Origin: Anaerolineae bacterium
Lineage (GTDB): Bacteria; Chloroflexota; Anaerolineae; Anaerolineales; Villigracilaceae
Direction of reading: 5' to 3'
Assembly: GCA_030123675.1 (NCBI GenBank)
Contig: JASJYH010000004.1
Span: 184 to 64,183 of the forward strand
DNA: 64,000 bases
Position 1 is the stretch's first letter. Each line of letters opens with the position of its first letter. Shown piece after piece: positions 13,296-46,427 of this stretch. Below the pieces are notes generated by a model. That model was given only the letters and a program-made list of their open reading frames with translations. It made no database searches and was not told where the DNA came from. Position numbers and translations under genes: made by a program.

Positions 13296-13315
13296 AATGG
13301 CCTTTAGGTGAAAAA

Positions 13316-14260: not shown

Positions 14261-14299
14261 ACCCAAAACATCCCTATAACGAGCAATAGGGACCTGATG

Positions 14300-15211: not shown

Positions 15212-15347
15212 ACCATAACTAAATCCTTCAGGTTTCAGAAATATTAGAAAATTTAAATTGATCACTAACTTAATGTATAATCAGCACATGAAAATATCGA
15301 CTGACAAGTCTGTTTGTCAGCCCCGCATACTCAGCGGTCGATGAAGC

Positions 15348-22344: not shown

Positions 22345-23698
22345 AACCTTTTATTGGCATTAAGTATTCTTGTAGATCAGTCAGCGCTCGTTCAGCGTAA
22401 GCCTTTCCGCGTTCTCTTTTGCCTCGTTTCTTGCCAGTGTTTTCCAAAGCAGGCAATATCCCAAAATTTGCTTTCATTGGTTGAAAATCGGCCATATCTG
22501 CATGGGTGACATAATGTGCGAGGGCACCCAGCATTGTAGTTTTTGGAAGAGTTAGGAGAGGTTGACGATAAATTTGGCGAGCTGCATTTATTCCTGCCAA
22601 TAATCCTGTCGCAATATTGCCAATATATCCTTCTACTCCTGTAATTTGGCCTGCAAGGAACAAATCATCCCGTATATTGAATTGAAGCGTAGGACGCAAA
22701 AGTTTTGGACTAGCCAGGAAGGTGTTGCGATGCATCTGGCCATAACGTTCAAAATCTGCCGTTTCAAGACCTGGGATTAATCGAAATACACGCCGCTGGT
22801 CTGGAAATTTCAGATTTGTTTGAAAACCAACCAAATTGTATAAATCACCAGCGAGATTATCTTGTCGTAATTGCACGACTGCATGAGGGCGCTGCCCATC
22901 GCGGGGATCAATTAGCCCAACAGGGCGCATAGGACCAAATGCCAGAGAGGCAAGCCCGCGTTCAGCGATGATTTCAACAGGCAAACAGCCTTCAAAGAAA
23001 TGATGTGCGCCTGCTTTCACACCACTTCGAATGGTTTCTTCAAAGGATCGCAATTCAATTCGTTCCGCCTCGAGCAAGGCCTTTACAAAATTTTCGTATT
23101 CAACCTTGTTGTATGGACAGTTTATATAATCCCCTTCGACTTGATCACTCTTATCATTTCGTGATGCTCTGAACGCGATCTCATGATTTATCGTGTCGTA
23201 GTTAATGATTGGAGAGATTGCATCGAAGAAATATAAGTGATCTTCGCCGAATAATTTTTTAAGATATTCAGAAAGATTTTGTGATGTTAAAGGGCCTGTC
23301 GCTATTATCGTGGGCGAATCGGGAATAGTAGTTACTTCCTCCCTTATTACATTTATCAAGGGATGGGAATAAATTTTGTCTGAAACTTTTTGTGAAAATA
23401 ATTGCCTGTCTACCGCCAATGCTGCCCCAGCCGGTACGGCAGTTTCCTCTGCAGTTTCAAGTAGCATTGAGCCAAAATGACGTAACTCATTCTTTAACAA
23501 ACCTGCTGCGCGATCTGGTAAGTTAGAGCCTAATGAATTGGAGCAAATTAGTTCGGCTAGATCGCTTGTTTGATGTGCCCCTGTGGATTTGACTGGACGC
23601 ATTTCGTATAGTGAAACAGAAATTCCCAATTCCGCTGATTGCCATGCAGCTTCACTGCCGGCCAGCCCACCACCGATAATTGTCAGTTTATTTTCCAT
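22337..23698 (-). CDS. trmFO: Methylenetetrahydrofolate--tRNA-(uracil-5-)-methyltransferase TrmFO
   Basis: 453 aa. [16 protein letters not shown] motif and [10 protein letters not shown], with overall TrmFO/Gid-like sequence. Confidence 0.9.
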
Positions 23699-23761
23699 GA
23701 TTCCGAGCTATTGTACCATTCGTTTATTTGTACTTTACTGCTGTATAATAATGTAACAATT

Positions 23762-31389: not shown

Positions 31390-34300
31390 TTAATTGGGAT
31401 CGACGCTTACGCGATTTAGGGCATTTTCTATACTATTTATTAAATCTTTCTCTTTAAGTGAACTTTTTTGAAGCAATCGATTGCCTAAATTGTCTACCTG
31501 TTTTTGTTCCTCTGCGGAGAGGTCTGCTCCGGTGATAATTATAACCGGCAAGTCTTTTAATTTTTCATCTTTTCGTAAGTTTTCAAGTATATTAAAACCA
31601 TTCATCTCTGGCATAAAGAGGTCCAATATAACCGCATGGGGTGGGTTGGAGGATAAAGAATTCCAACCAGCAGGCCCACCCTCAGCTAAGATCGGTTTAT
31701 ATTTCCCTTGCTCGGAGAGCATTTTCCCTAACAAACGCAAGTCATTTGGGTTATCGTCAATTATTAGGACTTCTCGAATACTTCCATCACCGTTTAAGCG
31801 GTCAAGAGAACTTACCAGGTCATCTTCAAGGACAGGTTTTACTAAATAGTCGGTTGCACCCAGGTTATATCCTTTATCTTCATCTTCTACAATGCTGCAA
31901 ATTATGACAGGGATGTCTCGAGTTTCGGCCGAAGATTTAAGGTTTGACAAGATTTGCCATCCATCGTAATCTGGCATCATAATATCCAATGTTATCGCAA
32001 AAGGATTTAGGTCTTTCACTTGTTCCGTTACTTTAGAAGGGTCTTTCAAACCAATAACCTTATATCCTTTTGGTTCTAGATACCGTTTATACATGCTGAT
32101 AACTTTAGGGTCATCATCAATCGCAAGAATTAATCGCCCATCTTCAGGTCTAGTGGATTCAATTTTGGTTTGAGAAATAGGTATCGAGAAATAAAATGTA
32201 CTGCCCTTTCCTAATGAGCTATGGACACCGATTTGACCCCCGTGCATTTCGATTAAGTGGTTACAAATTGAAAGCCCAAGACCTGTACCTCCTGCTTTTC
32301 TAGTAAACGAATCGTCTACTTGGGAGAAAGGCTTAAAAAGTTTATCATGATCTTTTTTTGCAATACCTTCCCCGGTATCCGAAACGCTTACCAACACTAA
32401 GGGTTCTTTGCCGGCACCTTCTTCAATTGTAACTTTAACGGTGATTTCACCTTCTTCTGTAAACTTAGCTGCATTTGAAAGGAAGTTGATCAAAACTTGA
32501 CGTATCCGCATTGCGTCCGCGCGAACGATAAGGGGTTTTTCTGGGATGTCCCGTTTAAGCTCTATTGGTTTATCCTTTATCAAACCAGCTGCAGTGGACA
32601 TCACACTGATAATCAATTCGTTGATATTTACATCTTCGAAAGTAAGTTCCATTTTCCCCGCATCAATTCGCGAGAGATCAAGAATATCATTGATGAGACC
32701 TAATAAATGTTGACCAGAGTTGAAAATTGCTGTCAGATCTTGCTGTTGTAATTCGGTAATAGGTCCATCGATTCCCTTGAGAATTACACGTGCAAAACCA
32801 ATGATCGAATTCAATGGAGTGCGCAATTCATGACTCATATTAGCCAGAAATTGACTTTTCAAGCGGTCTACCTCGCGCATTTCCTCTACCGCTTGTTGCG
32901 CGATATTATAGGATCTCGCATTATCGATTCCAACCGCAATTTGGTCTGCTAAAAGTTGTAAAATGGCAATATTATCATCGGTGAAGGCGTTAATTTCTGT
33001 CGAGTGAATATCAATGGTGCCGATAACGCGTTTACCACTTTTTAGCGGGATGGCTGCTTCAGATCGAGTTTCCGATAAAAGGGGGGAAGGATTAACAATA
33101 GATTCAAGGGCTGTATTGTTGTTAATTACTGTTTCGCCACTGGCACTTGATTTACCAACCAAGGATTTTGAATCAATAGCGATTGAATGTTTTTGTTGTT
33201 TTAATTTTTCGCCTACTTCACCAGTAGATTCTTTCAAAACTGCATTAAATCCAGACTCATCAATGATGAAAATTGAGGTGTGATAAAACCCAAATCGCTC
33301 TACAATAAGATTTACTGATCGGTCGTAGATTACGTTCAAATCCAATGTAGAGGTAACTAAGGTTCCGATCTCCCCAGAAGCTGCTAAATATTCATTCCTT
33401 CTATTGAGAGCTTCCTCAGCCTCTTTTCGGACGGTAATATCACTGTGAATGGCCAAAAACCCGAGAATGTTATCGTTTGCATCTAAGATAGGGCTATTTG
33501 TCCCATCTATTGGAATTAGTTTGCCATCTTTTCTTTTATTGATTATTTCCCAGGAAACCGTCTCCTTATTCAGCAGGGTATCCCAAAATATTTTAAATTC
33601 CTCTTTTGGAACCTGCCCTGATTTAATAATCCGTGGATTTTTCCCAAGCACCTCTTCTACGGAATAACCATACACTGTTTTAAAACTAGGATTTGCATAA
33701 ACAATATTTCCTTGAATATCGGTCATGAACACTGCGTCTGCAGAGCGTTCCAATCCCAATCGAAATTTACGACTTTCATCAAATAATTGTGCGTTTTCAA
33801 TTGTAAAACCTAATTGGTTTGCAATAGCTTGTGCTAATGATAATTCTTCTTTTGTTAAGCCAACGGTGGAGTTTCGATAAAGACTAAGGGTCCCAAGTGT
33901 TTTCCCCTTTACAATTAAAGGAACACCATAGAAGCCATAGAGACCAGCTTTAATTTCAGATTTCACATCACAAGGGGCGCCCTTTCGCAAATCATTTATG
34001 GCTAAACTTTCACCGGTGTTGTACACAATTCCACTTAGAGATTTTTCAAGCATCTTCTCTAAATCGTCAGTACCCTTACCTGGCATTCCAATCCGTTCAG
34101 CAAGCTCTAATTTCGCTCTAGCTTCATTAAAAATAGAAATTAATCCGCCTTCAAATTTAAGAACTTCGAGGACTTTCTTTAATACGATGGAAAGAATTTC
34201 TTTAATGTCTATTGATTGGTTTGCAGCAGCCAAAACGGCATTTAAGGCGGCTTGTTCTTCAGCACTCCTTTGGGTTTCTTGAAACAAGCGTGCATTTTCT

Positions 34301-34659
34301 AGCGCTTGAGAAAGTTGATCAGCTACTTGTTTGATGAGTAATTGTTCTTCTGTCCCCCATTTACGTTCCTCTAATTCATCAATTACTTTCAGCGTTGCCC
34401 AGCTATTTTCATCTGTGCGAAATGCAGTCGAGAGCATTGCCGAAGATGATTTGCGATTCCCAGCTGGGATCGTTGAAGTTTCTTTAAGGATTGAAAGATC
34501 CCTTGTGCCAAAATTGGTCGGCTGTTCTTTAACTGTGAGTTTAGAACTTTGAGGCGGTTTGGTTCCATTCTTTTTTGACCGCTTTGATTTCGCTTCAGGT
34601 TCTTTATCGAAATCGCCAAATAACTTATCAAGCCTGTTGTTTAATTTCTTCTTTGACAT
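31390..34659 (-). CDS. Hybrid sensor histidine kinase: GAF-PAS-GAF-HisKA-HATPase_c-REC-REC
   Basis: 1089 aa. PAS (DAVFMTDIQGNIVYANPSFKTVYGYS), H-box ANMSHELRTPLN, G-box GGTGLGLSIC, and two receivers (LAIDDDP...LDIMMPDYDG; LIIDDNP...LDLFMPEMNG). AGGAG sits 10 nt before the ATG. The start overlaps the 3' end of parA by 32 nt. Confidence 0.85.
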   Translation of the reverse strand: MSKKKLNNRLDKLFGDFDKEPEAKSKRSKKNGTKPPQSSKLTVKEQPTNFGTRDLSILKETSTIPAGNRKSSSAMLSTAFRTDENSWATLKVIDELEERKWGTEEQLLIKQVADQLSQALENARLFQETQRSAEEQAALNAVLAAANQSIDIKEILSIVLKKVLEVLKFEGGLISIFNEARAKLELAERIGMPGKGTDDLEKMLEKSLSGIVYNTGESLAINDLRKGAPCDVKSEIKAGLYGFYGVPLIVKGKTLGTLSLYRNSTVGLTKEELSLAQAIANQLGFTIENAQLFDESRKFRLGLERSADAVFMTDIQGNIVYANPSFKTVYGYSVEEVLGKNPRIIKSGQVPKEEFKIFWDTLLNKETVSWEIINKRKDGKLIPIDGTNSPILDANDNILGFLAIHSDITVRKEAEEALNRRNEYLAASGEIGTLVTSTLDLNVIYDRSVNLIVERFGFYHTSIFIIDESGFNAVLKESTGEVGEKLKQQKHSIAIDSKSLVGKSSASGETVINNNTALESIVNPSPLLSETRSEAAIPLKSGKRVIGTIDIHSTEINAFTDDNIAILQLLADQIAVGIDNARSYNIAQQAVEEMREVDRLKSQFLANMSHELRTPLNSIIGFARVILKGIDGPITELQQQDLTAIFNSGQHLLGLINDILDLSRIDAGKMELTFEDVNINELIISVMSTAAGLIKDKPIELKRDIPEKPLIVRADAMRIRQVLINFLSNAAKFTEEGEITVKVTIEEGAGKEPLVLVSVSDTGEGIAKKDHDKLFKPFSQVDDSFTRKAGGTGLGLSICNHLIEMHGGQIGVHSSLGKGSTFYFSIPISQTKIESTRPEDGRLILAIDDDPKVISMYKRYLEPKGYKVIGLKDPSKVTEQVKDLNPFAITLDIMMPDYDGWQILSNLKSSAETRDIPVIICSIVEDEDKGYNLGATDYLVKPVLEDDLVSSLDRLNGDGSIREVLIIDDNPNDLRLLGKMLSEQGKYKPILAEGGPAGWNSLSSNPPHAVILDLFMPEMNGFNILENLRKDEKLKDLPVIIITGADLSAEEQKQVDNLGNRLLQKSSLKEKDLINSIENALNRVSVDPN

Positions 34660-35413
34660 ATTCTATTAACTCCTGAGCCAGTAAGCGATATTGTTGAGAG
34701 CCGCGGGTACTCGATTTATATTGTGTAATTGGCATTCCTGCGATTGGGCTTTCACGCAGCTTGGTGTCGATTTCTATGACCGTATTAAAAAGGCCTTTGC
34801 CAAAGGTGGATTTCAATTGTTCTTCAATATTGCGATGTGTACGGTTTCGCCGATCTAACATTGTTATAAGTATTCGATATGCTAGATCTGGATTGGTATC
34901 ATCTCTCAAGCGCTTTATTAACCCCATCATATTTCGGAGGGCATAGGCAGAGAAAAATTCAGCTTGCGTAGGAATAATTAATAGGTCGGCTGCTCCTAAC
35001 GCATTTTGAGTTATTGCACCAAGAAAGGGAGGGCAATCGAAAATCAAATAGTCATATGGTAATGGTGCTGCATTTTCAATTGCCTCACGCAAAATTCGGG
35101 TATAGTTTGTGCGAATTGGGAGGTATTGTTCGGCACTCTCGATGTTAGGATGCGCAGGAATAATATCAATTTCTTCGATATCTGTTGATTGCTTAGCGCT
35201 CATTAATGATGCTGCTTCTATAAGGATATTACTTGAAGAAATAGACACCTCATTTATTTCTAACCCTGCGGCCAGGGTTAAGTTTGCTTGTGGGTCTAAA
35301 TCTATCAGTAAAATTTTATTTCCTGCCTCTGCTAAGCCTGCGCCTAGTGACATGGTCGTTGTTGTCTTGGCTACGCCTCCCTTTTCATTTGAAACTGCAA
35401 TTGTATAGGTCAT
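34628..35413 (-). CDS. Orphan ParA/MinD-family ATPase (deviant Walker A)
   Basis: 261 aa. AVSNEKGGVAKTTT deviant Walker A and LLIDLDPQANLT. No ParB-like gene is adjacent. Its ATG overlaps the upstream TAA by 1 nt (TAATG). Confidence 0.85.
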   Translation of the reverse strand: MTYTIAVSNEKGGVAKTTTTMSLGAGLAEAGNKILLIDLDPQANLTLAAGLEINEVSISSSNILIEAASLMSAKQSTDIEEIDIIPAHPNIESAEQYLPIRTNYTRILREAIENAAPLPYDYLIFDCPPFLGAITQNALGAADLLIIPTQAEFFSAYALRNMMGLIKRLRDDTNPDLAYRILITMLDRRNRTHRNIEEQLKSTFGKGLFNTVIEIDTKLRESPIAGMPITQYKSSTRGSQQYRLLAQELIEYVKEEIKQQA

Positions 35414-37734
35414 TACTTCTCTCCTACGCTTTTTATGGTTTGGGGAGCATTGTTATTATCTGGATTGGGTGTCCTATCTTTAGACATAGGCGGACTTTCT
35501 GGCCCTTGAAGGACATGGGGTATCAATTGAACATGGGTTGCACCCAATGCAATTTTTAATTCTTCAATGGCAGTTTGGATAATTTTATCGGGATCATTTG
35601 TGCTGCGAATTTTACCGGAGATGTCTGATACTAAGCGTTCACGTTCAGCACGTCTTGTTATTTCTTCAAATAGGCGTGCGTTTTCTGCCGAAAGAGCTAC
35701 ACGTTCTGCAACCGCATTTACCAACTCCATTTGGTCTTCCCCGAGATCGTAATTTTCAGGAACTTGAACAGTCAATGTTCCAATTGGTTCACCACGAATT
35801 TTAATAGGGACTGATACACGTTTCGTCTCATTATTGCTATCGCTTTGGCCTCCATCTGACAATATTGCATCTATATTGTCAGATGATTCCAATGGAGTGG
35901 CACCGCGAGCATCGTAACGATAGCCTGCAAGGTCTTGTTCCCTTGATAGCTTGCTCCATGCCTGGCGAATGTACTGTCTATATAATGTTTCAGATTCTGC
36001 TAGGGATCTGCGTGTTTGATCAAAAAGACGTGCGTTTTCGATTGCTAAGCTTACTTGATCTGCCAATAGAGTTAGCACATTGATATCCTCATCATTAAAT
36101 GCAGCTTCTACTGTACTTTGAACATCCAATGCACCGATAATTTGGTCTCCAAATTTTAATGGAAGGGCCATTTCTGATCGCGTATCCGGCAATTCTGGAT
36201 TGTCGAAGAACACGGCATCCTCACCAACGTCTAGGGCTATGCGGGGTCTTCCAAGCGCGATGGAATATCCTACTATACCTTGCTCACCGATTTTGAGTTG
36301 ATGCCCACGTTCCAACATTTTTTTACCACCCTCACTATTGGCCGCACTTAGAACTGCATACTCATCAGTAGAATTGTTAAGGAAAATACCTACCTGGTAA
36401 TAACCAAATTGTTGGCTGATCACTTCAGTAATTTTGGGCAATACGTTCTCAATGGAGCGGACAGAAGTAATTGCGCTACCAACCAGGGTAATTGCTTTGA
36501 GCTGATTTGCACGTTGTTCAATCTGCTCATTTGCTTTTTCTAATTCAATAGTACGTTCTGATACCCTGTCTTCCAAACCGCTAAATAGCTCTTGTATTTG
36601 ATCAGCCATAGTATTGAAAGAATTTGCGAGGCTGACCAACTCAATACCACCAGTGATTTGCACTGATTGGTTTAAATCACCTTGCCCTAGCTTTTGAGCT
36701 GTATCTCTGAGCTGGTTCAACGGCCCAATGATGCGCCGCGTTAACACGAATGCGGCCAATGATCCTACTCCTAGGGCCACCAAAGATATTATTATCAAAG
36801 CCAATCTACCATTTCCACTGACAGATTGCAGTTGGAAACCTACCCGATTAAGAGCTTCAGTGCTTTCTTGGCGGATGTGGTTTGTGGTTTTGTTAATCTT
36901 TAGTAATTCTTCTCTTAAAATAATTGTGTTGGCTTCAATATTTGCGTCTAGCACTGCCAAGCCTGTTAGATTGTTTCGAATTACCTTGATAGATTCGACC
37001 AAATTTGAGGCAGGTATTGGTATTGTATTTGCCATCAAATCATCCTCCGAACTGTTTTGTACCAGTTCACCAAAATCTATGGTTAATAATTGAAGGTTGT
37101 CATAATATTGGCTCTGGCCTGTGTTTAAGAATGATTGTGAATCAGCCTGAATTTTCAAAACAAGTTGATATAGCTCAGGATTATCAAGAGGGAGAACAGA
37201 GTGTTCAAGTTCGTTAAGCGTTGTTTTTAATGTGATCTCTGGACCATCAGGAGCACTGCGCTTTTCAATATCAGTAACAATAGCTTGAAAGGCAGTTTCA
37301 TAGGCGTCTACCGAAAGACCCAGGCCTGCGGTTTCAGATAGAATATGTTCTATTTCTGGATTGTCGGATCTTTGAATAAAATCGTCTAATTCCCTTAGCG
37401 AACTGCGGGCTAACCCAAGGTGCGATTCAAAAGGAATGAGATAATCTGTTTGAACTCTCTCGAATCCAAGAGTGCGCCATGCAGACAGGAAATTTGTTTG
37501 ATCATGGCGGGCCAGCATGAACTCAGGTTCGATTTCGTGATTCAAGACACTAATATTTTTGGCTTCTTCCAGAGGAATACTTACATTGGTGCTCAAGGTC
37601 TGCAAGCTAAAATAACCGACCCCTGCAATAATTAGGGCCAAACCAAGAATGACCCCGAACATCAATCCGAGTTGGGATCTAATTGAGCCAGTTACACGGT
37701 TAGGATTTGATGAAGTTCTTGAAGATAATGTCAT
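35413..37734 (-). CDS. Receptor-like paralog 1: TM, ~265-aa extracytoplasmic helical domain, TM, HAMP, S-helix, GAF, conserved C-terminal module. No recognisable output domain.
   Basis: 773 aa. HAMP (IIGPLNQLRDTAQKLGQGDL...), S-helix LEDRVSERTIEL, GAF core FGYYQVGIFL...FDNPELPDTRSEMALPL...IGALDVQS...LADQVSLAIENARLF, and tail ...AERVALSAENARLFEE..RRAERE..ISGKIRS....IIQTAIEEL. Confidence 0.85.
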   Translation of the reverse strand: MTLSSRTSSNPNRVTGSIRSQLGLMFGVILGLALIIAGVGYFSLQTLSTNVSIPLEEAKNISVLNHEIEPEFMLARHDQTNFLSAWRTLGFERVQTDYLIPFESHLGLARSSLRELDDFIQRSDNPEIEHILSETAGLGLSVDAYETAFQAIVTDIEKRSAPDGPEITLKTTLNELEHSVLPLDNPELYQLVLKIQADSQSFLNTGQSQYYDNLQLLTIDFGELVQNSSEDDLMANTIPIPASNLVESIKVIRNNLTGLAVLDANIEANTIILREELLKINKTTNHIRQESTEALNRVGFQLQSVSGNGRLALIIISLVALGVGSLAAFVLTRRIIGPLNQLRDTAQKLGQGDLNQSVQITGGIELVSLANSFNTMADQIQELFSGLEDRVSERTIELEKANEQIEQRANQLKAITLVGSAITSVRSIENVLPKITEVISQQFGYYQVGIFLNNSTDEYAVLSAANSEGGKKMLERGHQLKIGEQGIVGYSIALGRPRIALDVGEDAVFFDNPELPDTRSEMALPLKFGDQIIGALDVQSTVEAAFNDEDINVLTLLADQVSLAIENARLFDQTRRSLAESETLYRQYIRQAWSKLSREQDLAGYRYDARGATPLESSDNIDAILSDGGQSDSNNETKRVSVPIKIRGEPIGTLTVQVPENYDLGEDQMELVNAVAERVALSAENARLFEEITRRAERERLVSDISGKIRSTNDPDKIIQTAIEELKIALGATHVQLIPHVLQGPESPPMSKDRTPNPDNNNAPQTIKSVGEK

Positions 37735-37812: not shown

Positions 37813-40620
37813 TTAGATTTGTTCTTCCGCTTTATTGGTACCATTACTGTCAGAATTGAATTGAATGATTATCTCAGAACCCGGTATACCGCGTCCAAGT
37901 TCTTCAACAGCAGTTTCTAGCACATTTCGTAGATTGATTGATGAGCCGATCTTTGCCGTTATTTCGCTAACAATATTTTCTTTTAAGGCTCTGCGGGTTG
38001 TTTCTTCAAGCAATGTGGCGTTTTCTATAGCAGTTCCAACTCTTTCAGCAAGCACCTCAAGTATTTCTGTCTCGTCTTGATTCAACTTTCTGTTTCCAGG
38101 GAGGTTAATGTTTATCGAACCGATCAATTGATCTCGAAGTTTAATTGCGAGGGCTTGTGTTGAATCATTTGATTTTGTCGGCGTATCCAGTGAACGGACG
38201 GTTGTCCCAGAAAGCTCGTAACCAACTACTTTACGCTTACCGGCTATTTTCTGCCAGGCTTCTAGCGTGTACTCTGCTACGACTGTTTGCGCATCAGTCA
38301 GTAGGCGTTGGGAAACTTCAAAAAGGCGAGCGTTTTCAATTGCCACACTAATTTCGTCAGCAAGAATTGAAAGGACTTCAATATCCTCTTCAGTGAAGGC
38401 ATCTGCTTCAAGACTCTGCACATCTAATGCGCCAATAATTTTTGAACCTACTAGTAGCGGAAGGGCCATTTCAGAACGGGTGTCTGGAAGTTCGGGGTTA
38501 TCAAAGTGAATAGCGTCATATCCCGTATCTAATGCGATTCTAGCTTCGCCAGTGGAGGTTACGTAGCCCACAATACTGGTTTGTTCAACTTTTAAGCGGT
38601 GTTTTCGTTCTAGCATTTTTTTCCCACCTTCACTGCTTGCGGCATTAAGAACAGCATACTCTCCGCTTTCATCTAGTAAGAACAATCCTACTTGATAGAA
38701 ACCGAATTCTTTACTAACTAAATCTACTGTTTTAGGGAGCAATGTATCCAATTGTTGAACGGTAGCAATCGTACGAGCGAGTTGAGCGACAGTTTTGAAC
38801 TGACCTGCTCGGGTTTCGATTTGACTTGCACTTATTTCAAGTTCCTCTGTACGGTCGGCTACACGTTGTTCTAACTCAGATAGATTATCTTGCAATTTAG
38901 TATTCATAATATTAAATGCAGACGCGAGCTGCCCAATCTCATCGTTCGATTCGATAACCGCGCGAGCGCTTAAATTGCCTCCCGAAACTTCATTTGCAGT
39001 TTCGGTAAGGTTAAGGATTGGATTAGCCAGAACCTGAGCAACTAAAAAGGACAGTAAGGTTGCAATTCCAACTATGATGGTTCCGATGAAACTGGTTAAA
39101 CGCACTTGTTGGCGGACGGGAATGAGGGCTTCATCCTTATTTAAATGAATAATGGTGAACCAATTCAAGTCATTAACTTCTGGCACATCGGCAACAGTTG
39201 TGACTTTAGCGGTTGAGAAAATATTTTCTTCGCCCTGAAATTCCCTGATGTCATAAACCTGATTGGATTCTTGAAGCTCAACAATATGTGTAATAACAAC
39301 CGGCGAGACAATTTCAAGTTGACCTGTATTTGTTTGAAATTCAAGATTTTGCTCGCCAGTAAAAATAATATCCAACATAGCTGGATCATCAATGAGTTCT
39401 TCACCAAGGGTTGATTGTATTAATTTTTTTAATGATATTGTAGTTTTTAAAATACCGTTTACTTCGGAATTAGTTTCATCGAGAATTGGCACAGCAATTA
39501 ATATTATATGATTGTTTGTATTTTCATCGAGAACAGGAGAACCAATATAAACTCCCCCCTTGCCATCGTTATAGGCTGATTGCCACCATAATTCCTCGGC
39601 ATGATAGTAAACTGGCGGTACATTATTAGCGCCTACTAGTGCACCTTTTTTATCTGTAACCAAAGTGTCGATGTTGTTTGGGAAGATTGCCCGATATCTC
39701 TCAAGGTTTTGAGCTACAGCATTATTTGACAGTAGATTTAGGATACGGTTAGTAGTAGATAAATCGACAATAGCGGCTTGATACTCTTGATCAATTTTTT
39801 GAATATTGTTGAGATTTTCAGCTTCATTGTCTGAATAGGTTACGTTTTTCTGGTCAATAGCAACTTGAAGAGTATCATTTAAGGCCAATGATTTTAATGA
39901 CTGAACTTGGTTGCTCAGTAAATCGCCAACAGCCTTACCGCGTGACTCGACAAGGGCATGTAATTGTTCTCCAACTTGATTTGTCAACGTTCTGGATGTT
40001 AATGTAACCATCACAATGTTGAATGTCGTACTGATTAAAACTACAACTGCTAAAATTGTGATTAAAACTTTACTGGCAAGCCTTAATTCTGCAAATTGAT
40101 ATATGGCCTGAACTAAAAATATTACCGTAGTACCTCGAGCTGCCCATATAATGACTGCCTCACCAATAGCATCACCAGTCTGGAGAATAGGTGAATAAAA
40201 TGCCAAAATACCCGATATAAGGCTTATTGCCAGAGCGATTACAAGACTTCGAATAACGAGATTGGTCGGTAGACATTGAATACCAATAACAAGAATAATG
40301 ATCAGGATAGCCAATCCAACTTCAGAACCAACGTTAGCCTGAGTAGCTGATATGAGCAAACCCGTTAAAATTATTGCCGCCATCAAATGCCAAACACCGA
40401 TAGCTGGGTTCTCTTCATCTCTTGTTCGGATAATTGTTTGGGAGATAGTTGCTATTATATAAAATGTTCCTGCGATAATAAAACTGAACAAGTTTTGAGT
40501 TGAGGTGCCTCGGAAGAAGAAAAGGATGGCTCCGAACGGGGCCAGAATAATAGGAATTCTAGCAAGGCGAGCAAGATTATCTCCAAGATTATCCCCTAAA
40601 CCAATAGGATTAAAACTCAT
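37813..40620 (-). CDS. Receptor-like paralog 2: ~6-7 TM, Cache-like extracytoplasmic domain, TM, HAMP, S-helix, GAF, C-terminal module
   Basis: 935 aa. Cache-like WWQSAYNDGKGGVYIGSPVLDE...LIAVPILDE, HAMP, LEQRVADRTEEL, GAF core FGFYQVGLFL...FDNPELPDTRSEMALPL...IGALDVQS, and tail LAERVGTAIENATLLEE..RRALKE..EITAKIGSSINLRNVLETAVEELG. Confidence 0.85.
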   Translation of the reverse strand: MSFNPIGLGDNLGDNLARLARIPIILAPFGAILFFFRGTSTQNLFSFIIAGTFYIIATISQTIIRTRDEENPAIGVWHLMAAIILTGLLISATQANVGSEVGLAILIIILVIGIQCLPTNLVIRSLVIALAISLISGILAFYSPILQTGDAIGEAVIIWAARGTTVIFLVQAIYQFAELRLASKVLITILAVVVLISTTFNIVMVTLTSRTLTNQVGEQLHALVESRGKAVGDLLSNQVQSLKSLALNDTLQVAIDQKNVTYSDNEAENLNNIQKIDQEYQAAIVDLSTTNRILNLLSNNAVAQNLERYRAIFPNNIDTLVTDKKGALVGANNVPPVYYHAEELWWQSAYNDGKGGVYIGSPVLDENTNNHIILIAVPILDETNSEVNGILKTTISLKKLIQSTLGEELIDDPAMLDIIFTGEQNLEFQTNTGQLEIVSPVVITHIVELQESNQVYDIREFQGEENIFSTAKVTTVADVPEVNDLNWFTIIHLNKDEALIPVRQQVRLTSFIGTIIVGIATLLSFLVAQVLANPILNLTETANEVSGGNLSARAVIESNDEIGQLASAFNIMNTKLQDNLSELEQRVADRTEELEISASQIETRAGQFKTVAQLARTIATVQQLDTLLPKTVDLVSKEFGFYQVGLFLLDESGEYAVLNAASSEGGKKMLERKHRLKVEQTSIVGYVTSTGEARIALDTGYDAIHFDNPELPDTRSEMALPLLVGSKIIGALDVQSLEADAFTEEDIEVLSILADEISVAIENARLFEVSQRLLTDAQTVVAEYTLEAWQKIAGKRKVVGYELSGTTVRSLDTPTKSNDSTQALAIKLRDQLIGSININLPGNRKLNQDETEILEVLAERVGTAIENATLLEETTRRALKENIVSEITAKIGSSINLRNVLETAVEELGRGIPGSEIIIQFNSDSNGTNKAEEQI

Positions 40621-40663: not shown

Positions 40664-42367
40664 TTAATCTTTATCAACCTGTATGGTGATATCTGCGCCT
40701 GGAAGAATACTTCCTATTTCTCGCAGAGTTGTCTGTAGAATATTTTCTAAATTAATCGATTGAGTAATCTTAGATGTTATTTCACCAATGACTTGTTCCT
40801 TGGCACCACGGCGTTGTGCGTCTTCCAATAACCGTGCCCCTTCAAGCGCCAGGGCAGTACGGTCAGCTGCCGCTTTGGTTAAGGAAATTTCATCATCTGA
40901 CCACTCATAATCTGGATTGGCAGGCTCAAGTACCAGGGTAGCTACTTCTTGGCCGCGGTAACTGATAGGAATTTTGAATGAGCCCTTTACAGGTGAAATT
41001 CCCGCTTCTGTCAAAGGCTGTGCCTTGTTTCCGTCATATCGATATCCTTTTAAAGCCGTAATTTGAGTGTATTCTTTCCAGGCCCGACCAGTTAATTGAC
41101 GGGTTGCAAAATCGGCCTCATGTAATGCGCGCTGTGCCTGGTCTAAAGATTGTGCGTTTTGAATAGCAACAGAGACTTGGTCAGCTAAAATTGAGAAAAT
41201 TCCTACATCTTCTTGAGAAAATGCATTTATTTCTTTAGACTGGATATCCAGTGCGCCTACAATTTCCTGGCCTAACATAAGGGGCAGTGCCACTTCAGAG
41301 TGTGTATCTGGTAATTCGGGATTGTCAAAAAATTCTGATTCTTCACCTACATCCAAAGCGATGCGGGCCTGGCCTCGAGAAGTAACAAAACCAACAATAC
41401 CCTCCTGACCAACTTGCAATCGATGTTGACGTGCAAGCATTTTTTGACCACCTTCACTATTTGCAGCGCGCATAATAGCAAATTGTTTTTTATCATCCAG
41501 CAAAAAGATGCCCACATGATAGAAACCAAAACGTTCACTGATCAAATTGGTAATTTCGGGCAGCAATTGGTCTACACCACGAAGGGTGGCGATTGAACTC
41601 GCAACATCTGCAATGGCCTCTAGCTGCTCTGTGCGTCCTTTTAGGTCTTGTGTCCTGTCAATTACTCTCTGCTCTAATGTATCGATCAGTTCACGCATTT
41701 GATTATCCCTCTCGGAAATTTGTTCAGCCATTTCGTTTGCGCGTTGGGCAATTACATCGATATCACCTTGTTTCACAGTTGGTATTTTGTATTTGTAATC
41801 GCCACCTGCGAATACCTCTAAGCCTTCAGTCAATTGAGTTAATGGTTTTATTAAAAGTCTTCGTAGTAAAAATCGGGTAACCACCTGTACAGCTACTATA
41901 AGCGCCAATCCTACCCATAAATTTACCAACAAAATATTGATTTGATCAGAAGTGTCTTTTTCAAAAGATACTTCAACGCTTCCTACTGGATTATCTTCAA
42001 AATTAATTGTGCGCTGTTCGGATAATATTCCTGTCTGCTCACCTAAATCTTCTTGAGGAAATTTATATATTACTTGATGAGTTTCATCAAATATATTCAA
42101 AATGACAACACCATCAATTTGTTGATAGCCATTCGCAATTTGTTCAATTCCGGGCGAATCATTAATTCTTAATGGAGAAGCCAGAACTTGGGCTAAGTTG
42201 TCGGCAATCTTGGTGGCCCTATTTTCTAAATCGGCTGTTGCCTGGTTTACAGCGCGAAAATAGTTGTAGATACTTATTCCGCTGATGACTATAATTATTG
42301 TGAAAGCCAGACCGATCGTTAAATCTCTTGTTACTGTTCGTCGCCTACCACTGATCAAATTACTCAT
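40664..42367 (-). CDS. Receptor-like paralog 3: TM, ~130-aa extracytoplasmic domain, TM, HAMP, S-helix, GAF, C-terminal module
   Basis: 567 aa. LEQRVIDRTQDL; GAF core FGFYHVGIFLLD...FDNPELPDTHSEVALPL...VGALDIQS; GYRYDG linker motif; tail AADRTALALEGARLLED..RRGAKE..EITSKITQSINLENILQTTLREIG. Confidence 0.85.
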   Translation of the reverse strand: MSNLISGRRRTVTRDLTIGLAFTIIIVISGISIYNYFRAVNQATADLENRATKIADNLAQVLASPLRINDSPGIEQIANGYQQIDGVVILNIFDETHQVIYKFPQEDLGEQTGILSEQRTINFEDNPVGSVEVSFEKDTSDQINILLVNLWVGLALIVAVQVVTRFLLRRLLIKPLTQLTEGLEVFAGGDYKYKIPTVKQGDIDVIAQRANEMAEQISERDNQMRELIDTLEQRVIDRTQDLKGRTEQLEAIADVASSIATLRGVDQLLPEITNLISERFGFYHVGIFLLDDKKQFAIMRAANSEGGQKMLARQHRLQVGQEGIVGFVTSRGQARIALDVGEESEFFDNPELPDTHSEVALPLMLGQEIVGALDIQSKEINAFSQEDVGIFSILADQVSVAIQNAQSLDQAQRALHEADFATRQLTGRAWKEYTQITALKGYRYDGNKAQPLTEAGISPVKGSFKIPISYRGQEVATLVLEPANPDYEWSDDEISLTKAAADRTALALEGARLLEDAQRRGAKEQVIGEITSKITQSINLENILQTTLREIGSILPGADITIQVDKD

Positions 42368-42469: not shown

Positions 42470-43855
42470 TTATTTATTGTTCCTGTTATCCGGTTCTAGC
42501 GAAGGCGCCTCAGTTATGTTTGCCATTTCGATGGTGACGCCGCTGGCTCCAGAAAGGCGACGGCCAAGTTCTTCTACAGTCGTTTGCAAGATTGACTCGA
42601 CATCCCTGGCTGCATTAATGCTGGCTGAGATTTCTCCAATAACCTGTTCTTTGGAAACAGAGTTTCGTGCATCTTCGATCAAGCGGGCAATCTCCAGCGC
42701 CAAGCCAGTTCGGTCAGCAACTGCTTTTGCCATCAATAATTCATTATTAGACCATTCACGATTTGGATCTAATGCGTTTAGGTGAATGCGGCCGATAGTA
42801 TTTCCGCGAATTTTAATTGGGATCGAGAGTTGGTCACTAGACACTAATTTCTTGTGTTGTTTTTCCGTATATGGTTTGGGTGTGAGACCATCATAAATGT
42901 AGCCCTTAACCTTAACTCCAGGTAGATAGCTTTTCCAAATTAGGCCGGATTCACGTTTGCTGGTAGCCTCTTTCAATTTCAGAGCCAATTCTGCCTCTTC
43001 CACAAAGCGAGTACTTTGAATTGATATGGCAACTTGGTCGGCGAGAATTGAGAGCACATCGACATCATCTTGTGTAAAGGCATTTCGTTCTTTTGATTGT
43101 AAGTCCAATGCGCCAATGATTTCGCCCGCTATTTTTAATGGAAGAGCCATTTCGGAATGGGTTTCGGGTAAGTCAGGATTGTCAAAAATAACGGAACCAA
43201 CCCCAACGTCTAGGGCGATGCGGTGTTTTCCGATAAATGTCACGTTTCCTACGATACCTTGTCTGCCAATTTTTATCCGGTGTCCATTATTGATCATCTT
43301 TTTTCCGCCCTCACTACTAGCTGCTCTTAATATGGCAAACTCACGATTTTCGTCTACCAAGAAAATGCCTATATGGTAATACTCGAATCTCTGACTTATC
43401 AATAAAGCGATTGAATCAAGTAATTGTTTCAAATCTTTTACTGTAGCCCCTGAACGGGCTACATCTGCAACAATTCGGAGTTGATTTACTTTCTCACTAA
43501 TTTTCTCGTTAGCGGCTCCCAGTTCAGAAGTGCGTTCTAAGACTCGCTGCTCTAATTCTTCACCCGATGCTTGAAGTTCATCGTTTGCTAATTCAATAAT
43601 TTCGTTCGCCTCATATAGGCGGTCTTCACGAATTCCGACAAAAAAGGCCAACAGACCAAGAAAAATGGGTGCTGTGTCAATGATATTAATTAATTGGTTC
43701 GTTTGATGTAGCACAATTACATTTAGTAATGTAAGTTGTAATCCACTTTGTGATAATTCTATTACTGTTCCAATTAGTGGAAATAAAAAGCCGAACCCAA
43801 CCCCTATTAGGGTAAATTTATTTCGTTTATCGTTGCTAATTGATTTTTTTGTCAT
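42470..43855 (-). CDS. Receptor-like paralog 4: short TM N-terminus, coiled coil/S-helix, GAF, C-terminal module (no HAMP seen)
   Basis: 461 aa. LEQRVLERTSEL; GAF core FEYYHIGIFLVD...FDNPDLPETHSEMALPL...IGALDLQS; tail VADRTGLALEIARLIED...EISASINAARDVESILQTTVEELG. Confidence 0.85.
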   Translation of the reverse strand: MTKKSISNDKRNKFTLIGVGFGFLFPLIGTVIELSQSGLQLTLLNVIVLHQTNQLINIIDTAPIFLGLLAFFVGIREDRLYEANEIIELANDELQASGEELEQRVLERTSELGAANEKISEKVNQLRIVADVARSGATVKDLKQLLDSIALLISQRFEYYHIGIFLVDENREFAILRAASSEGGKKMINNGHRIKIGRQGIVGNVTFIGKHRIALDVGVGSVIFDNPDLPETHSEMALPLKIAGEIIGALDLQSKERNAFTQDDVDVLSILADQVAISIQSTRFVEEAELALKLKEATSKRESGLIWKSYLPGVKVKGYIYDGLTPKPYTEKQHKKLVSSDQLSIPIKIRGNTIGRIHLNALDPNREWSNNELLMAKAVADRTGLALEIARLIEDARNSVSKEQVIGEISASINAARDVESILQTTVEELGRRLSGASGVTIEMANITEAPSLEPDNRNNK

Positions 43856-43940: not shown

Positions 43941-46427
43941 TTAAATGTCTGACCTTAAATCTGATTCTAATTCAAGAAGTACATTTGTTCCACCAAGTTG
44001 TCGACCTAATTCTTGCACTGTTGTGCGTAGTATTTCTTCAATATTCGTCGTTGCACCAATTTTTAATGCCATTTCGCCAATAGATTGCTCAAGAGAGGCA
44101 CTGCGCTGGGCATCTTCAAATAAACGAGCGCTATCTAATGTATTACCGATTTCACCAGAAAATGAAACAACATCTGAAATCTCATCGGGTGACCAAGGAT
44201 CATTTGAAGATTGTTTTTCGAGACGCATCATACCGATTGTTATGCCGCGGGAGGAAATGGGTACACTTAAGGTTCTTTGGTCTTTGCTGAGAACAGGTTT
44301 TCCCTTATTAAGCTCTTTCTTAACTTCTGGATCTAAAGTTCCATTTGATTCAGACAACTCACCGTGAATAGAACTGATATACCCTGGGGCCGATTGGCCT
44401 TGTAGCAATAATCTCCATCCGCTCTGGCTGAGCTTGCCAGTGGCCCTGTGAGACCTGGAGAGTGCCTCTTGTATTTCATTCAGCAAAAGTGCGTTTTGGA
44501 TTGCTATGGCCAATTGATCGGCTAATATTTGGAGGGTTGGAATATCATAATCTGAAAATGCATCCGACTCGTTGCTCTGGACGTCTAATACTCCAAAGAT
44601 TTCGCCACCAGAAACGAGGGGTAAGGCTGCTTGTGAATGTGTTTCTGGCAAATCCGGATTGTCAAATTTCACTGCATCTTCGCCAATGTCTAAAGCAATT
44701 TTTGCAACACGATCACTTGCTGCCGTACCCACAATTCCTTCAACCCCAACCTTTAATTTATATTTGCTGGCAAGCATTTTTTCGCCCCCTTTACTGTTGG
44801 CTGCTCTCAGGATCACATAATCATTGAGAGAGTCGACCAAAAATATTCCTACATGATAATATCCAAACCTATTGCTAATGAGGTGTACCGCTCGAGGTAA
44901 GAGATCTTCCAAAGTTCGTTGCTCAGCGATTGCCTTGCCAACTTCTGCTACTGCTTGTATATGTCCAGCGCGTCTTTCTATGTCCCTCGTGCGTTCCGCA
45001 ACAGCACCTTCGAGATTTGTGATTAACCCTTGGGCGGTTGTTGTAACGCTATTTAGCGTTCTCCCCAAGACACCTATTTCATCCCCAGATTTAACTTCGG
45101 CTCTCTTATCGAGATTGCCTGCAGCAACCTCATTTGCCACCTTTGTTAGTCTATCTAACGGTGAGATTATGGAGGTACCTATTCCGTAGGAGGCTAATGC
45201 TGATACAGCGAGCATAATTAATATTATTCCAACTGCACTTGTGAGAGTTTCTTGAGTTTGGGTTTCTATGATTGTATTTGTTGCTACAAAATCTTCAAGC
45301 AATTCATTTTCAGGGACAATTAAACCTAGGCTGAAACCGACTATAGGAATTGGCTTATAAGCGATATAACGATTGCTGCCATTAATATTTATAAGACGCA
45401 CTCCTGACTGACCACTTGTCATTTGCGTGAGCACCTCATTAACCTCTGAAGAGACGCGACCTATTAATGACAGCTCGGCAATATTTACGCTTTGAACTTC
45501 TTCAAGGGTCAAATTGAAATCTTGATACGCAGTTTCTGGCATCTCGAGCAATCTACCTTCCGAATCAATAAGGATGCTATATCCTGAATTTCCTATAGAC
45601 AATGCGCCTACTCGATCAGTTATTGAAGAAAGGTTGAAGTCTATTCCGGCAACACCTCTAAACTCACCGTTGGTATCATAAACTGGAACACTACTGGTTA
45701 CAAACAATCCGGTTTGTGCTGAATTTTGCCAAGGTATCGACCAAACTGCCTTATTGTCAAGTTGTGATACTTTCAATGAACTTTGATACCAAGGAGTGCT
45801 TGTAACACTATAATCCAAGGGTAGGGTAGCAGCTAAATTAATATTCGGGTAATACACGGTTTCCCCTAGATTTCCACCAAAATATACTGCTTCAATTTCC
45901 GGATTTTCAATAAATAATCCTTCTACAAAAAGATCAAGTCCTTTTAGGGCAGCCAACTCAATCGCGATGCTGTCATTTAGCGGAATTGTGCCCGGAAGGA
46001 AAATTGATGAAGCCTCTGAGTTTGAATTATCAAGGGATCCGTTAGGTAGTTGTTTCAATTCCAAATAAGGATTCCACGGACTTTCATCTGAAAGGGGAGA
46101 TCCATTATTGGAGATTACTGTTCCAGTGATAGTACCAAAAATTTCGGTTACATTTTTCAATGATGAGAACAAAAATGCAATATCACTAGCTTCATCTGAA
46201 GCAATCACGGCCAACCGATTTTCGATCTCTTGAGTCACACTCATATCAAATTGATCTACTAAAAAATTATTGGTTTCTCGTGAGCGCGAAAGAACAAAAT
46301 ATCCCATAATTGAAACTGTAATGAGAACGATAAATAAGTTGCCTAATAGGATTTTCGTTTTCAACGAAAAGGAATAACGCAGTTTGGGATTAATTGCTGT
46401 ACCCGTTGAACCTTGATCATCGGTCAT
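43941..46427 (-). CDS. Receptor-like paralog 5: TM, double-Cache-like sensor, TM, HAMP, S-helix, GAF, C-terminal module
   Basis: 828 aa. dCache-like WYQSSLK...VTSSVPVYDTNGEFRGVAGIDFNLSSI...GYSILIDSEGRLL; HAMP; LEGAVAERTRDI; GAF core FGYYHVGIFLVD...FDNPDLPETHSQAALPL...FGVLDVQS. Start overlaps the upstream stop (ATGA). Confidence 0.85.
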   Translation of the reverse strand: MTDDQGSTGTAINPKLRYSFSLKTKILLGNLFIVLITVSIMGYFVLSRSRETNNFLVDQFDMSVTQEIENRLAVIASDEASDIAFLFSSLKNVTEIFGTITGTVISNNGSPLSDESPWNPYLELKQLPNGSLDNSNSEASSIFLPGTIPLNDSIAIELAALKGLDLFVEGLFIENPEIEAVYFGGNLGETVYYPNINLAATLPLDYSVTSTPWYQSSLKVSQLDNKAVWSIPWQNSAQTGLFVTSSVPVYDTNGEFRGVAGIDFNLSSITDRVGALSIGNSGYSILIDSEGRLLEMPETAYQDFNLTLEEVQSVNIAELSLIGRVSSEVNEVLTQMTSGQSGVRLININGSNRYIAYKPIPIVGFSLGLIVPENELLEDFVATNTIIETQTQETLTSAVGIILIMLAVSALASYGIGTSIISPLDRLTKVANEVAAGNLDKRAEVKSGDEIGVLGRTLNSVTTTAQGLITNLEGAVAERTRDIERRAGHIQAVAEVGKAIAEQRTLEDLLPRAVHLISNRFGYYHVGIFLVDSLNDYVILRAANSKGGEKMLASKYKLKVGVEGIVGTAASDRVAKIALDIGEDAVKFDNPDLPETHSQAALPLVSGGEIFGVLDVQSNESDAFSDYDIPTLQILADQLAIAIQNALLLNEIQEALSRSHRATGKLSQSGWRLLLQGQSAPGYISSIHGELSESNGTLDPEVKKELNKGKPVLSKDQRTLSVPISSRGITIGMMRLEKQSSNDPWSPDEISDVVSFSGEIGNTLDSARLFEDAQRSASLEQSIGEMALKIGATTNIEEILRTTVQELGRQLGGTNVLLELESDLRSDI

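Follow-up and report, generated by a model that had tools for sequence, protein, structure and literature searches.

How eight sensor proteins with no output domain reach the kinase encoded beside them is the central question raised by a locus in the window analyzed here (the whole stretch of 64,000 nucleotides from a contig of an Anaerolineae bacterium). The eight paralogs are encoded as close neighbors, all on the minus strand, and the only domains detected in them were dCache, MASE11, HAMP, and GAF. MCPsignal (PF00015) was found in none of the eight, so that they do not qualify as MCPs by their signaling domain, and HisKA/DHp and HATPase_c were likewise absent from all eight, both being found in the adjoining kinase. 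The operon is conserved and occurs in Anaerolineales, which are abundant in metagenomes of wastewater, sediment, and groundwater; the organisms concerned are uncultured. It comprises, in order, two receivers, 5–11 output-less sensors (eight here and 5–11 in other genomes), ParA, the hybrid kinase, a receiver-fused PLP enzyme, and an exporter. We found no description of this operon in the literature searched, including that on Anaerolineae GAF/ParA systems, and searches on split, truncated, or incomplete GAFs, on MASE11, and on Villigracilis gave nothing relevant. All eight sensors end within what looks like the beginning of a GAF. When a protein ends in part of a domain, the fragment is usually written off as annotation noise; the positions of those considered here are given in Table 1.

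Table 1. Positions in the window of the kinase, the ParA-type gene, and the C-terminal modules of the paralogs
Feature	Position	Strand	Basis or remark
Hybrid histidine kinase	31390..34659	(-)	head-GAF-PAS-GAF-HisKA-HATPase-REC-REC
Kinase N-terminal junction, aa 97-167, aligning with receptor module	34159..34371	(-)	HMM, hhalign, AF2
Kinase head	34270..34437	(-)	AF2; conservation; Pfam GAF match confined to profile 88-133
Kinase N-terminal basic peptide MSKKKLNNRLDKLFGDFDKE, predicted helix 4-13	34600..34659	(-)	overlaps end of ParA gene
ParA/MinD-type ATPase gene	34628..35413	(-)	between receptor array and kinase; synteny
Paralog 1 module (linker helix, mini-GAF, tail, ~30-aa variable extension)	35416..36024	(-)	HMM
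Paralog 1 tail RRAERERLVSDISGKIRSTNDPDKIIQTAIEELKIALGATHVQLIP	35515..35655	(-)	helix-helix-strand stub
Paralog 2 module	37816..38322	(-)	tail 37855-37995
Paralog 3 module, 162 aa	40667..41152	(-)	AF2-modeled
Paralog 3 fold-back helix 135-149 (ILQTT..E.G) and strand-like segment 150-160	40673..40750	(-)	AF2, couplings
Paralog 3 single continuous helix, residues 86-132	40757..40897	(-)	AF2
Paralog 3 mini-GAF sheet	40928..41047	(-)	AF2 strands 36-39, 44-47, 59-65, 68-75; couplings
Paralog 3 connecting helix, module residues 2-31, ending in invariant W	41060..41149	(-)	AF2
Paralog 4 module	42473..43003	(-)	tail 42524-42664
Paralog 5 module	43944..44483	(-)	tail 43965-44105
Paralog 6 module	46427..46972	(-)	tail 46499-46642
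Paralog 7 module	48106..48570	(-)	tail 48130-48270
Paralog 8 tail, without mini-GAF, right after complete GAF	50079..50228	(-)	HMM

The C-terminal module and its mini-GAF

After the canonical GAF, paralogs 1–7 carry a 30-residue helix, then a pocket-less four-stranded mini-GAF, and then a tail of ~48 residues. The sequence-only reading had described this arrangement as a half-GAF followed by the start of another GAF, and both the Pfam GAF models and PDB profile matches support that description quantitatively. It had placed the module at 35413-35904, a range that is indeed the last 163 aa of paralog 1 plus the stop but starts past the W...GY linker. The motif strings it listed for paralogs 1–7 are all present, but not every motif occurs in every paralog. 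The linker W (also present in at least 90% of 150 homologs), the A.R.ALALENARL helix, and the RR..E..I.EI..KI...ILQT..E.G tail are found in all seven, whereas the linker GY occurs in five (paralog 6 has AY and paralog 7 deviates), the complete P..RG..IG hairpin in five (paralogs 2 and 3 deviate), and W[ST]..E in only four. The paralog 1 module matches HMM positions 1-164 with an i-E of 4.4e-62, the match lying 10 aa before the stop. Paralog 8, a naturally soluble protein, ends, as had been claimed, in the same tail after a complete GAF (Pfam GAF 505-638), with a match to HMM positions 47-157 (i-E 2.4e-23) that lies 7 aa before the stop.

An AF2 monomer of the paralog 3 module, built from 150 sequences (mean pLDDT 89.3, pTM 0.66), predicts a mini-GAF of four strands and two flanking helices without pocket helices (pLDDT 91-97). 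The sheet, in which GY.Y is the first strand and P..RG..IG the last hairpin, packs in this model on the connecting helix and on the canonical last GAF helix, and it is supported by couplings 64-69, 65-70, 65-100, and 59-84. Compared with a canonical GAF, the mini-GAF is missing the first strand together with its helix, and also the helices that form the pocket; the five- or six-stranded antiparallel sheet and ligand pocket of a GAF are absent from the AF2 model. Comparison with three Pfam GAF models (PF01590, PF13185, and PF13492) gave matches to the module only at the last ~40 positions (profile 91-133 of 133), scoring 22.0 bits for the paralog 3 module against a cut-off of 22.4 and 24.7 bits, as a partial match, for that of paralog 1; the mini-GAF gave no full-length GAF profile match above the curated cut-off. 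In a PDB profile search, positions 54-110 of the seven-tail profile matched the C-terminal hairpin and helix of DosS/DosT, PDE, and CBCR GAFs, and this part of the model fits onto GAF structures with an rmsd of 1.3-2.0 Å over ~50 columns. Foldseek detected no global GAF fold similarity for the paralog 3 module (E 0.75-5, TM ~0.3, ~50 aligned columns), whereas the complete kinase GAF, used as a control, gave E 2e-10 and TM 0.8. In the mini-GAF, no more than the last hairpin and helix can still be recognized as GAF. In addition, mini-GAFs are found internally with complete GAFs after them, so the mini-GAF does not need the tail.

Shape, spread, and proposed role of the tail

Positions 110-157 of the seven-tail profile match the N-terminal helix-helix-strand of phytochrome/cyanobacteriochrome GAFs in the PDB (6oap, 1.2e-11; 8k9o, 4.7e-07; 8w26 domain 1, 2.4e-05) and align with residues ~10-57 of single CBCR GAFs. 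What would make this a complete phytochrome/CBCR-type GAF, namely the other strands, the pocket, and the last helix, does not follow the tail. Searched alone (~48-49 aa), it had no match among the Pfam models, and NCBIfam holds no specific family for the tail or for the head of the kinase described below.

In the AF2 monomer, the continuous helix of paralog 3 is the last GAF helix (A.R.ALALENARL) running unbroken into the first tail helix, and no hairpin-type couplings were seen around residue 113. The terminal segment (150-160) is modeled as unpaired coil with a pLDDT of about 80 and with both edges free. The tail had been called open, and it can be so described because its last strand is unpaired in the monomer. 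It is neither a complete known small domain (the best Foldseek hit has E 0.75 with about 50 columns aligned) nor a plain coiled coil.

Covariation was analyzed by pseudo-likelihood DCA, solved as one matrix problem, in the module alignment and in a 352-column alignment that includes GAF1. Intra-tail couplings, among them 118-157, 122-138, 144-153, and 141-157, rank among the strongest of the whole 352-column alignment, and the top 150 couplings of the module alignment contain 13 between helix A and helix B, 13 between helix B and the terminal strand, and 8 between helix A and the terminal strand. Nearly all conserved tail residues have an intra-tail partner, such as K128 with E145 and I157 with 118, 122, 138, and 141. 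None of the top 150 couplings joins the tail strand to the last mini-GAF strand. Packing of the tail on GAF1, as in a chain-reversal model, was rejected, the best tail-GAF1 pair ranking only 104 in the 352-column analysis. The AF2 monomer leaves unsatisfied a small number of weak couplings that link the last GAF helix (94-112) to the fold-back helix (135-141). Collectively, AF2 and covariation agree on a predicted tail shape with neither closure in cis nor coupling to the mini-GAF or GAF1.

These data bear on the idea that the module is a circularly permuted GAF, in which the tail would give the mini-GAF its missing first strand and helix in cis and form one closed domain. The elements that the mini-GAF is missing N-terminally do occur after its last helix, circular permutation is a classic outcome of duplication followed by truncation, and two very weak couplings would fit, 103-125 at rank 143 and 108-119 at rank 151. 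However, the same tail also follows complete GAFs, Foldseek similarity to GAFs is confined to the columns given above, and cis closure is contradicted by the unbroken helix, the unpaired terminal segment, and the absence from the top 150 of any coupling between the tail strand and the last mini-GAF strand. We consider this explanation very improbable.

Relatives were gathered as related loci with a 79-aa tail alignment. In 163 sequence sources, 832 ORFs end with the tail, 780 of them with a mini-GAF and 52 after a complete GAF, and the 501 ORFs taken from the first 82 sources end a median of 6 residues past the tail. Homologs from the protein database stop at the same point too. Given that more than 800 relatives share this end point, the tail is a conserved end piece and not a leftover of random truncation. 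A functionless remnant of a decayed downstream GAF would also be homologous to a GAF start and stop early, but the end point, sequence pattern, and strong internal covariation are kept across many genomes (more than 800 ORFs) and across ancient paralogs whose synteny is conserved; we give this view almost no credence.

Nor does the tail depend on the part of the protein before it. Giant multi-GAF proteins (P0043, P0169, and P0083) carry it, like paralog 8, after a complete GAF, and in loci L009 and L026 a full GAF stands between the mini-GAF and the tail. In another locus (L092), a 550-aa split-off kinase fragment ends with the tail, and the downstream ORF starts with PAS and offers no acceptor.

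Our best reading, to which we give an even chance, is that the tail caps the GAF spine as an autonomous, family-wide end piece. The preceding GAF would pass its last helix without a break into the first tail helix, the second tail helix would fold back on the first, and the terminal segment would rest on both, creating a small hydrophobic core of its own and neither completing the mini-GAF nor contacting GAF1. In a receptor dimer, two such helical hairpins may seal the spine at its C-terminus in the manner of a four-helix bundle, and proteins without enzymatic output may thereby have a defined and stable end to their GAF array. The resemblance to the kinase N-terminus would then reflect common descent from GAF-to-GAF junctions. 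Several points weigh against an end cap: the dimeric bundle is extrapolated from monomer models, the terminal strand has both edges free in a model of modest pTM, the weak couplings to the fold-back helix are left unsatisfied, and the route by which eight output-less receptors reach the kinase is not explained. Moreover, the kinase itself starts with an orphan hairpin and helix, the very GAF piece with which such a strand would pair.

The kinase N-terminus and possible contacts of the tail

The kinase string noted earlier at 34149-34404 is as quoted and continues into a full GAF, which reaches to aa ~309. Its claimed similarity to the receptor module is significant (hhalign E 5.2e-10 over 87 columns; HMM i-E 4.2e-13). 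However, the internal GAF-to-GAF junction of paralog 8 scores better than the kinase with the same HMM (i-E 3.3e-14), and PDB junctions reach 1e-12, a value that comes from other search sets and is not directly comparable. The kinase match is a case of generic GAF-to-GAF junction homology and not unique to the kinase. The proposal that the receptors derive from truncated kinase sensor modules holds insofar as they end just inside the next GAF, but descent from a multi-GAF array fits better, because the same tail ends output-less giants and the acceptor-less split-off kinase fragment.

The part of the kinase that we call the head corresponds to the last third of a GAF, preceded in the AF2 model only by a disordered linker. 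It consists of an orphan beta-hairpin (aa 75-81 and 87-93) and part of a helix (aa 103-130) that runs to 148. No other part of the first 310 aa is as conserved as the head, in which W87, Q115, L116, A119, N122, A123, L125, and F126 are invariant in 55 orthologs, whereas the adjoining complete GAF is poorly conserved. Among 102 genes located downstream of ParA, 101 start with the head, always after an array of tail-bearing receptors. This conserved orphan hairpin and helix, topologically complementary to the tail, is new here.

Such complementarity lends circumstantial support to the docking idea of the sequence-only reading, made specific here as split-GAF docking, in which receptor tail and kinase head would assemble in trans into a minimal GAF-like joint, coupling the helical spines of receptor and kinase and letting eight sensors share one kinase. 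The tail stops after the first strand and the kinase starts at the last hairpin, past its disordered linker; the conservation and gene position of the head agree with docking, as does the absence of output domains from the receptors, and the giant proteins contain natural minimal GAFs of ~110 aa with nearly the composition of tail plus head. Against this, the tail is far more widely spread than the head: the giants and two clusters (L082 and L083) have tails and no head-bearing kinase, and the split-off kinase fragment ends with a tail even though the next ORF begins with PAS. Across five head clades, no tail column showed a clade-specific change common to the paralogs, the one column changing in concert with head variants being an F/Y column in GAF1. 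Among the window paralogs the terminal strand is 20% and the tail helices 34-39% identical, below the 48% of GAF1; by this measure the tail is not the most conserved receptor part. Neither a natural fusion of tail with head nor a head signature at an internal position turned up when searched for. We regard docking as doubtful. It is similarly unlikely that a split GAF formed in trans acts as a detachable joint between eight membrane sensors and one soluble hybrid kinase, with ParA positioning the assembly via the basic peptide.

The tail might instead be donated between receptors. Since a rigid continuous helix would block self-complementation, the tail of one receptor dimer would insert into the mini-GAF of another, the chain ending on the kinase head and paralog 8, with its complete GAF and tail, acting as donor only. 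What the tail could supply, a fold-back helix and a first strand, is exactly what the mini-GAF is missing, the AF2 helix excludes cis closure, and some of the weak couplings to the fold-back helix that the monomer leaves unsatisfied might be met in this way; the window holds 8 donors versus 8 potential acceptors (7 mini-GAFs and 1 head), and the ParA-type ATPase suggests a large positioned assembly. We nevertheless judge these donor-strand-type arrays quite improbable: the idea is wholly inferential, none of the top 150 couplings joins the tail strand to the last mini-GAF strand, internal mini-GAFs followed by complete GAFs are stable without a donor, and AF2 builds the mini-GAF confidently with no extra strand.

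Hundreds of signaling proteins thus end in one third of a GAF, a structural unit that is conserved and co-evolving but missed by current domain libraries. Together with the complementary orphan half-GAF of the kinase, it provides a concrete hypothesis for sensor-kinase communication. If docking were true, it would be a new mode of sensor-kinase coupling and a natural split-domain pair of possible engineering use, amounting to chemoreceptor-array-like logic built from GAF parts through a fragment-complementation interface that is not known to be described for two-component signaling.

Comparison with known systems

The best sequence matches to the module are GAF-GAF (GAF-PHY) junctions of phytochrome and cyanobacteriochrome sensor kinases (8w26 and 6oap, with the single CBCR GAFs 8k9o, 2lb5, and 6bhn). 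The elements come in the same order in both, with the hairpin and last helix leading through a continuous linker helix to the short helix (ILQTTV.E) and the first strand, and the continuous helix predicted across the junction is as in tandem GAFs. In phytochromes and CBCRs, however, the second GAF is complete and often bilin-binding, whereas here the protein stops after the first strand, and the preceding GAF is, unlike in those junctions, a four-stranded pocket-less unit.

For the docking idea alone, chaperone-usher pili provide an analogy. In donor-strand complementation, the incomplete fold of a pilus subunit takes up a spare strand from another protein; fold, compartment, and function all differ, and strand exchange would be hypothetical here.

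ParA-like ATPases are known to position chemoreceptor arrays, as with PpfA/TlpT in Rhodobacter and ParC/ParP in Vibrio. Unlike MCP arrays, the present system has no MCP signaling domain, CheW, or CheA, and relies on a HisKA-type hybrid kinase and a conserved, GAF-based cytoplasmic body. Like MCP arrays, it combines many dCache/HAMP-type receptors that have no enzymatic output with one shared kinase and a ParA-type ATPase in the cluster, and the protein encoded beside ParA bears a basic N-terminal peptide.

Gene cluster and receptor anatomy

The eight sensor paralogs (p1-p8) belong to one co-directional cluster on the minus strand, extending from ~53004 to 28735 of the window. In Pfam searches, p1-p7 combine dCache, MASE11 or HAMP inputs with one canonical GAF each (GAF1), p8 is soluble with three GAFs, and no output domain was detected in any of the eight. 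In other genomes, too, a receptor array is followed by ParA, the kinase, and the PLP enzyme-receiver in this order.

Features of the receptor cluster and of the kinase start
Feature	Coordinates	Strand	Remarks
Receiver-only gene	52615-53004	-	first in cluster order
Receiver-only gene	52179-52628	-	second in cluster order
Eight paralogs, p8 to p1	p8 50067-52172 down to p1 35413-37734	-	
ParA/MinD-type ATPase	34628-35413	-	after paralogs
Kinase basic peptide	34600-34659	-	also at kinase starts in loci L001-L162
Hybrid histidine kinase	31390-34659	-	after ParA/MinD-type ATPase
Threonine-synthase-like enzyme fused to receiver	29707-31377	-	after hybrid kinase
EamA exporter		-	last in cluster order

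A more distant Chloroflexota cluster (L082, contig CAYLZO010000033.1) retains a dCache-HAMP-GAF receptor, ParA, PLP enzyme-receiver, and EamA, additionally encodes a SpoIIAA-like and a periplasmic binding protein, and has a kinase with its own dCache-HAMP input that lacks the orphan hairpin and helix (the head) found near the N-terminus of the window's hybrid kinase. On a 5-Mb Anaerolineales contig (L001), one array receptor gene is split mid-GAF into two ORFs (777-1820 and 1829-2482), owing to a frameshift, pseudogene formation, or an assembly error.

Alignment of the post-GAF regions of p1-p7 revealed the collinear module that a sequence-only reading had described: a linker with an invariant W (GY in 5/7), a P..RG..IG hairpin (complete in 5/7), W[ST]..E (4/7), and, in all seven, the ENARL helix and the tail RR..E..I.EI..KI...ILQT..E.G. 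As claimed, p8 ends in the same tail, placed directly behind a complete GAF. The coordinates quoted in that reading translate as described, but 35413-35904 begins past the W...GY linker; the full p1 module spans 35416-36024.

The anatomical reading of the module as half a GAF (the mini-GAF) plus the start of another is right. Only the last ~40 positions of the Pfam GAF models find a match, in the module as well as at the kinase N-terminus, and the 49-aa tail alone gave no match to these models. When a profile of the seven tails was searched against PDB sequences, its matches split in two: positions 54-110 match the hairpin and helix at the C-terminus of many GAFs (DosS, DosT, PDEs), and positions 110-157 the N-terminal helix-helix-strand of phytochrome/cyanobacteriochrome GAFs (e.g., 8k9o residues 12-57, 8w26 residues 10-53, and 6oap residues 117-181). 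Taken whole, the profile is best matched by a GAF-to-GAF junction (8w26, residues 149-251; i-E 1e-12). In the database protein P0113, the element following the "tail" goes on as strand-strand...hairpin-helix; this continuation identifies GY.Y as the counterpart of strand two in a small GAF and shows that what the mini-GAF is missing is precisely the short helix and the first strand.

GAF1 is the most conserved segment of p1-p7, with a mean identity of 48% versus 20-39% elsewhere (in p3, aa 263-405, 41153-41581, minus strand). Motifs such as FGFYHVGIFL and NPDLPDTRSEMALPL are kept in it although the sensor domains differ entirely, and this conservation suggests a ligand or partner common to all receptors.

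The tail as a recurrent end point

Homologues terminate at the same point. In database relatives of p3, coverage of the module is 96-100%, and the proteins stop no more than a few residues from its end. Two collection scans yielded 157 loci; almost all carry the label Anaerolineales or Chloroflexota, with Candidatus Villigracilis among them. Within the first 82 sources, the tail closes 501 ORFs, their stops lying a median of 6 residues past the profile end; across all 163 sources the count is 832, made up of 780 ORFs that have the mini-GAF and 52 built like p8. Searching 1.84 billion representative proteins gave 72,427 matches, headed by giant multi-GAF proteins (1,100-3,950 aa) whose repeats are spaced at 160-190 aa; among the best 150 of these matches, 35 end with the tail, 16 of them with the full module.

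The tail is independent of the mini-GAF. Complete GAFs precede it in p8 and in three giant proteins (P0043, P0169, and P0083), and in loci L009 (14997-17204) and L026 (10261-12474) orthologues of the receptor immediately preceding ParA have an extra complete GAF between mini-GAF and tail. The W...GY mini-GAF is also found at internal positions of giant proteins, with complete GAFs after it.

The giant output-less multi-GAF proteins P0043-P0192 reach 3,952 aa, and a single one can have as many as 21 matched stretches. In some of them there are minimal GAF-like units of ~110 aa (ELDCLNDIGRKID...YIAYTE...ENRRL), in which just 17-20 residues separate the first strand from the last hairpin.

Predicted structure and covariation

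The p3 module, modelled as a monomer with 150 diverse homologues (mean pLDDT 89.3, pTM 0.66), is predicted to comprise helix 2-31, strands 36-39, 44-47, 59-65, and 68-75, one unbroken helix 86-132, and helix 135-149. The terminal segment is not assigned as a strand (pLDDT ~80, falling to 50 at the extreme end). Against PDB, Foldseek returned only weak GAF matches over ~50 columns of hairpin and helix (E 0.75-5, TM ~0.3). The first 310 kinase residues, modelled as a control, gave a short helix 4-13, a disordered stretch 14-74, hairpin 75-81/87-93 (pLDDT 77-87), an unbroken helix 103-148 and a further helix 152-167, followed by a complete GAF, which matches solved GAFs (E 2e-10, TM 0.8). The two helices of the common string are thus arranged in the same way in both models, and its terminal strand is paired only in the kinase model, where a whole GAF comes next.

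Mean-field DCA (453 modules) and pseudo-likelihood DCA (748 modules) gave concordant results, at a modest depth (Meff 340-455). Couplings among the two tail helices and the strand account for 34 of the top 150 (e.g., 122-138, 144-153, 118-157, 141-157, and K128-E145), and the tail is a self-contained unit. Mini-GAF contacts (65-100, 59-84, 64-69, 19-100, and 31-91) are consistent with the model.

Two arrangements were rejected by these analyses. Closure in cis, as a circularly permuted GAF, is contradicted by the module DCA, in which the tail strand shows no couplings to the final strand of the mini-GAF and the region around residue 113 gives no hairpin signal. For packing of the tail on GAF1, the best pair ranks 104th in a 352-column alignment including GAF1. 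Within GAF1, alignment columns 114 and 157 (p3 T331 and A374 by offset) couple exceptionally strongly (score 7.1 versus 3.3 for the next pair), which may reflect either a contact that determines specificity or an artefact of the alignment.

The kinase head and the role of the tail

The loci contain 109 ParA homologues, 102 with a downstream ORF, and 101 of these 102 ORFs start with three elements in fixed order: a basic peptide (M[SP]KKK...KRL.KLF.DI), a disordered Pro/Lys-rich linker of ~60 aa, and the orphan hairpin and helix, ..F[RQ]T....WATL.V.DE...R.W..EEQ.LVKQV.DQLSLALENARLFQE. Within kinase residues 1-310, conservation is highest in this head, and the complete GAF behind it is poorly conserved. 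In one metagenome contig (L092), the "kinase" is split into ORFs at 12351-14003 and 14007-15242; the first comprises basic peptide, head, two GAFs, and tail, and the second starts 4 nt later.

The similarity between module and kinase N-terminus is statistically real (hhalign of the tail profile, E 5.2e-10 over 87 columns; module HMM against kinase residues 76-167, i-E 4.2e-13). The same HMM scores an internal p8 junction at 3.3e-14 and a junction in a neighbouring, unrelated multi-GAF kinase (23639-26392, plus strand) at 1.5e-07, and hhalign places other GAF C-termini of the hybrid kinase at 5e-08 and 2e-05. These matches make the similarity generic: it reflects homology of GAF junctions inside a related GAF lineage and is no signature particular to receptor and kinase. 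The unrelated kinase has neither a terminal tail nor an orphan head.

Docking of the tail onto the kinase head as a split GAF, a more specific form of the docking idea in the sequence-only reading, would be a live and attractive alternative, though one that we consider unlikely. Its strongest argument is that the head is the topological complement of the tail. As a general role, however, it is at odds with loci L082 and L083, where tail-bearing receptors and soluble multi-GAF proteins co-occur with head-less kinases, and with L092, where a 550-aa head-GAF-GAF-tail protein follows ParA and the next ORF begins directly with PAS, so that the tail merely marks where the GAF protein ends. Moreover, across five head clades no tail column carries a change common to the paralogs, the window paralogs are less alike in the tail helices (34-39%) and terminal strand (20%) than in GAF1 (48%), and the data contain no tail-head fusion. 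Array formation through trans-complementation of mini-GAFs is less probable than docking, and we regard it as improbable.

The reading we prefer, with roughly even confidence, is that the tail is a conserved, autonomous end cap. Such a cap would have originated from a GAF-to-GAF junction and would lengthen and close the helical spine of the GAF array, sitting in p1-p7 behind a reduced, pocket-less GAF.

Pfam, NCBIfam, and the literature searched yielded no description of tail, head, or operon. A peptide related to the basic one, MADDELK.LL.GLFS, starts the post-ParA protein of L082 and the giant protein P0046. In the kinase basic peptide, R9 and L10 are nearly invariant and F14 is invariant, with an AF2 helix at 4-13, and the peptide always lies on the gene overlapping the ParA gene end. 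It is similar to the N-terminal peptides with which ParA partners stimulate ATPase activity.
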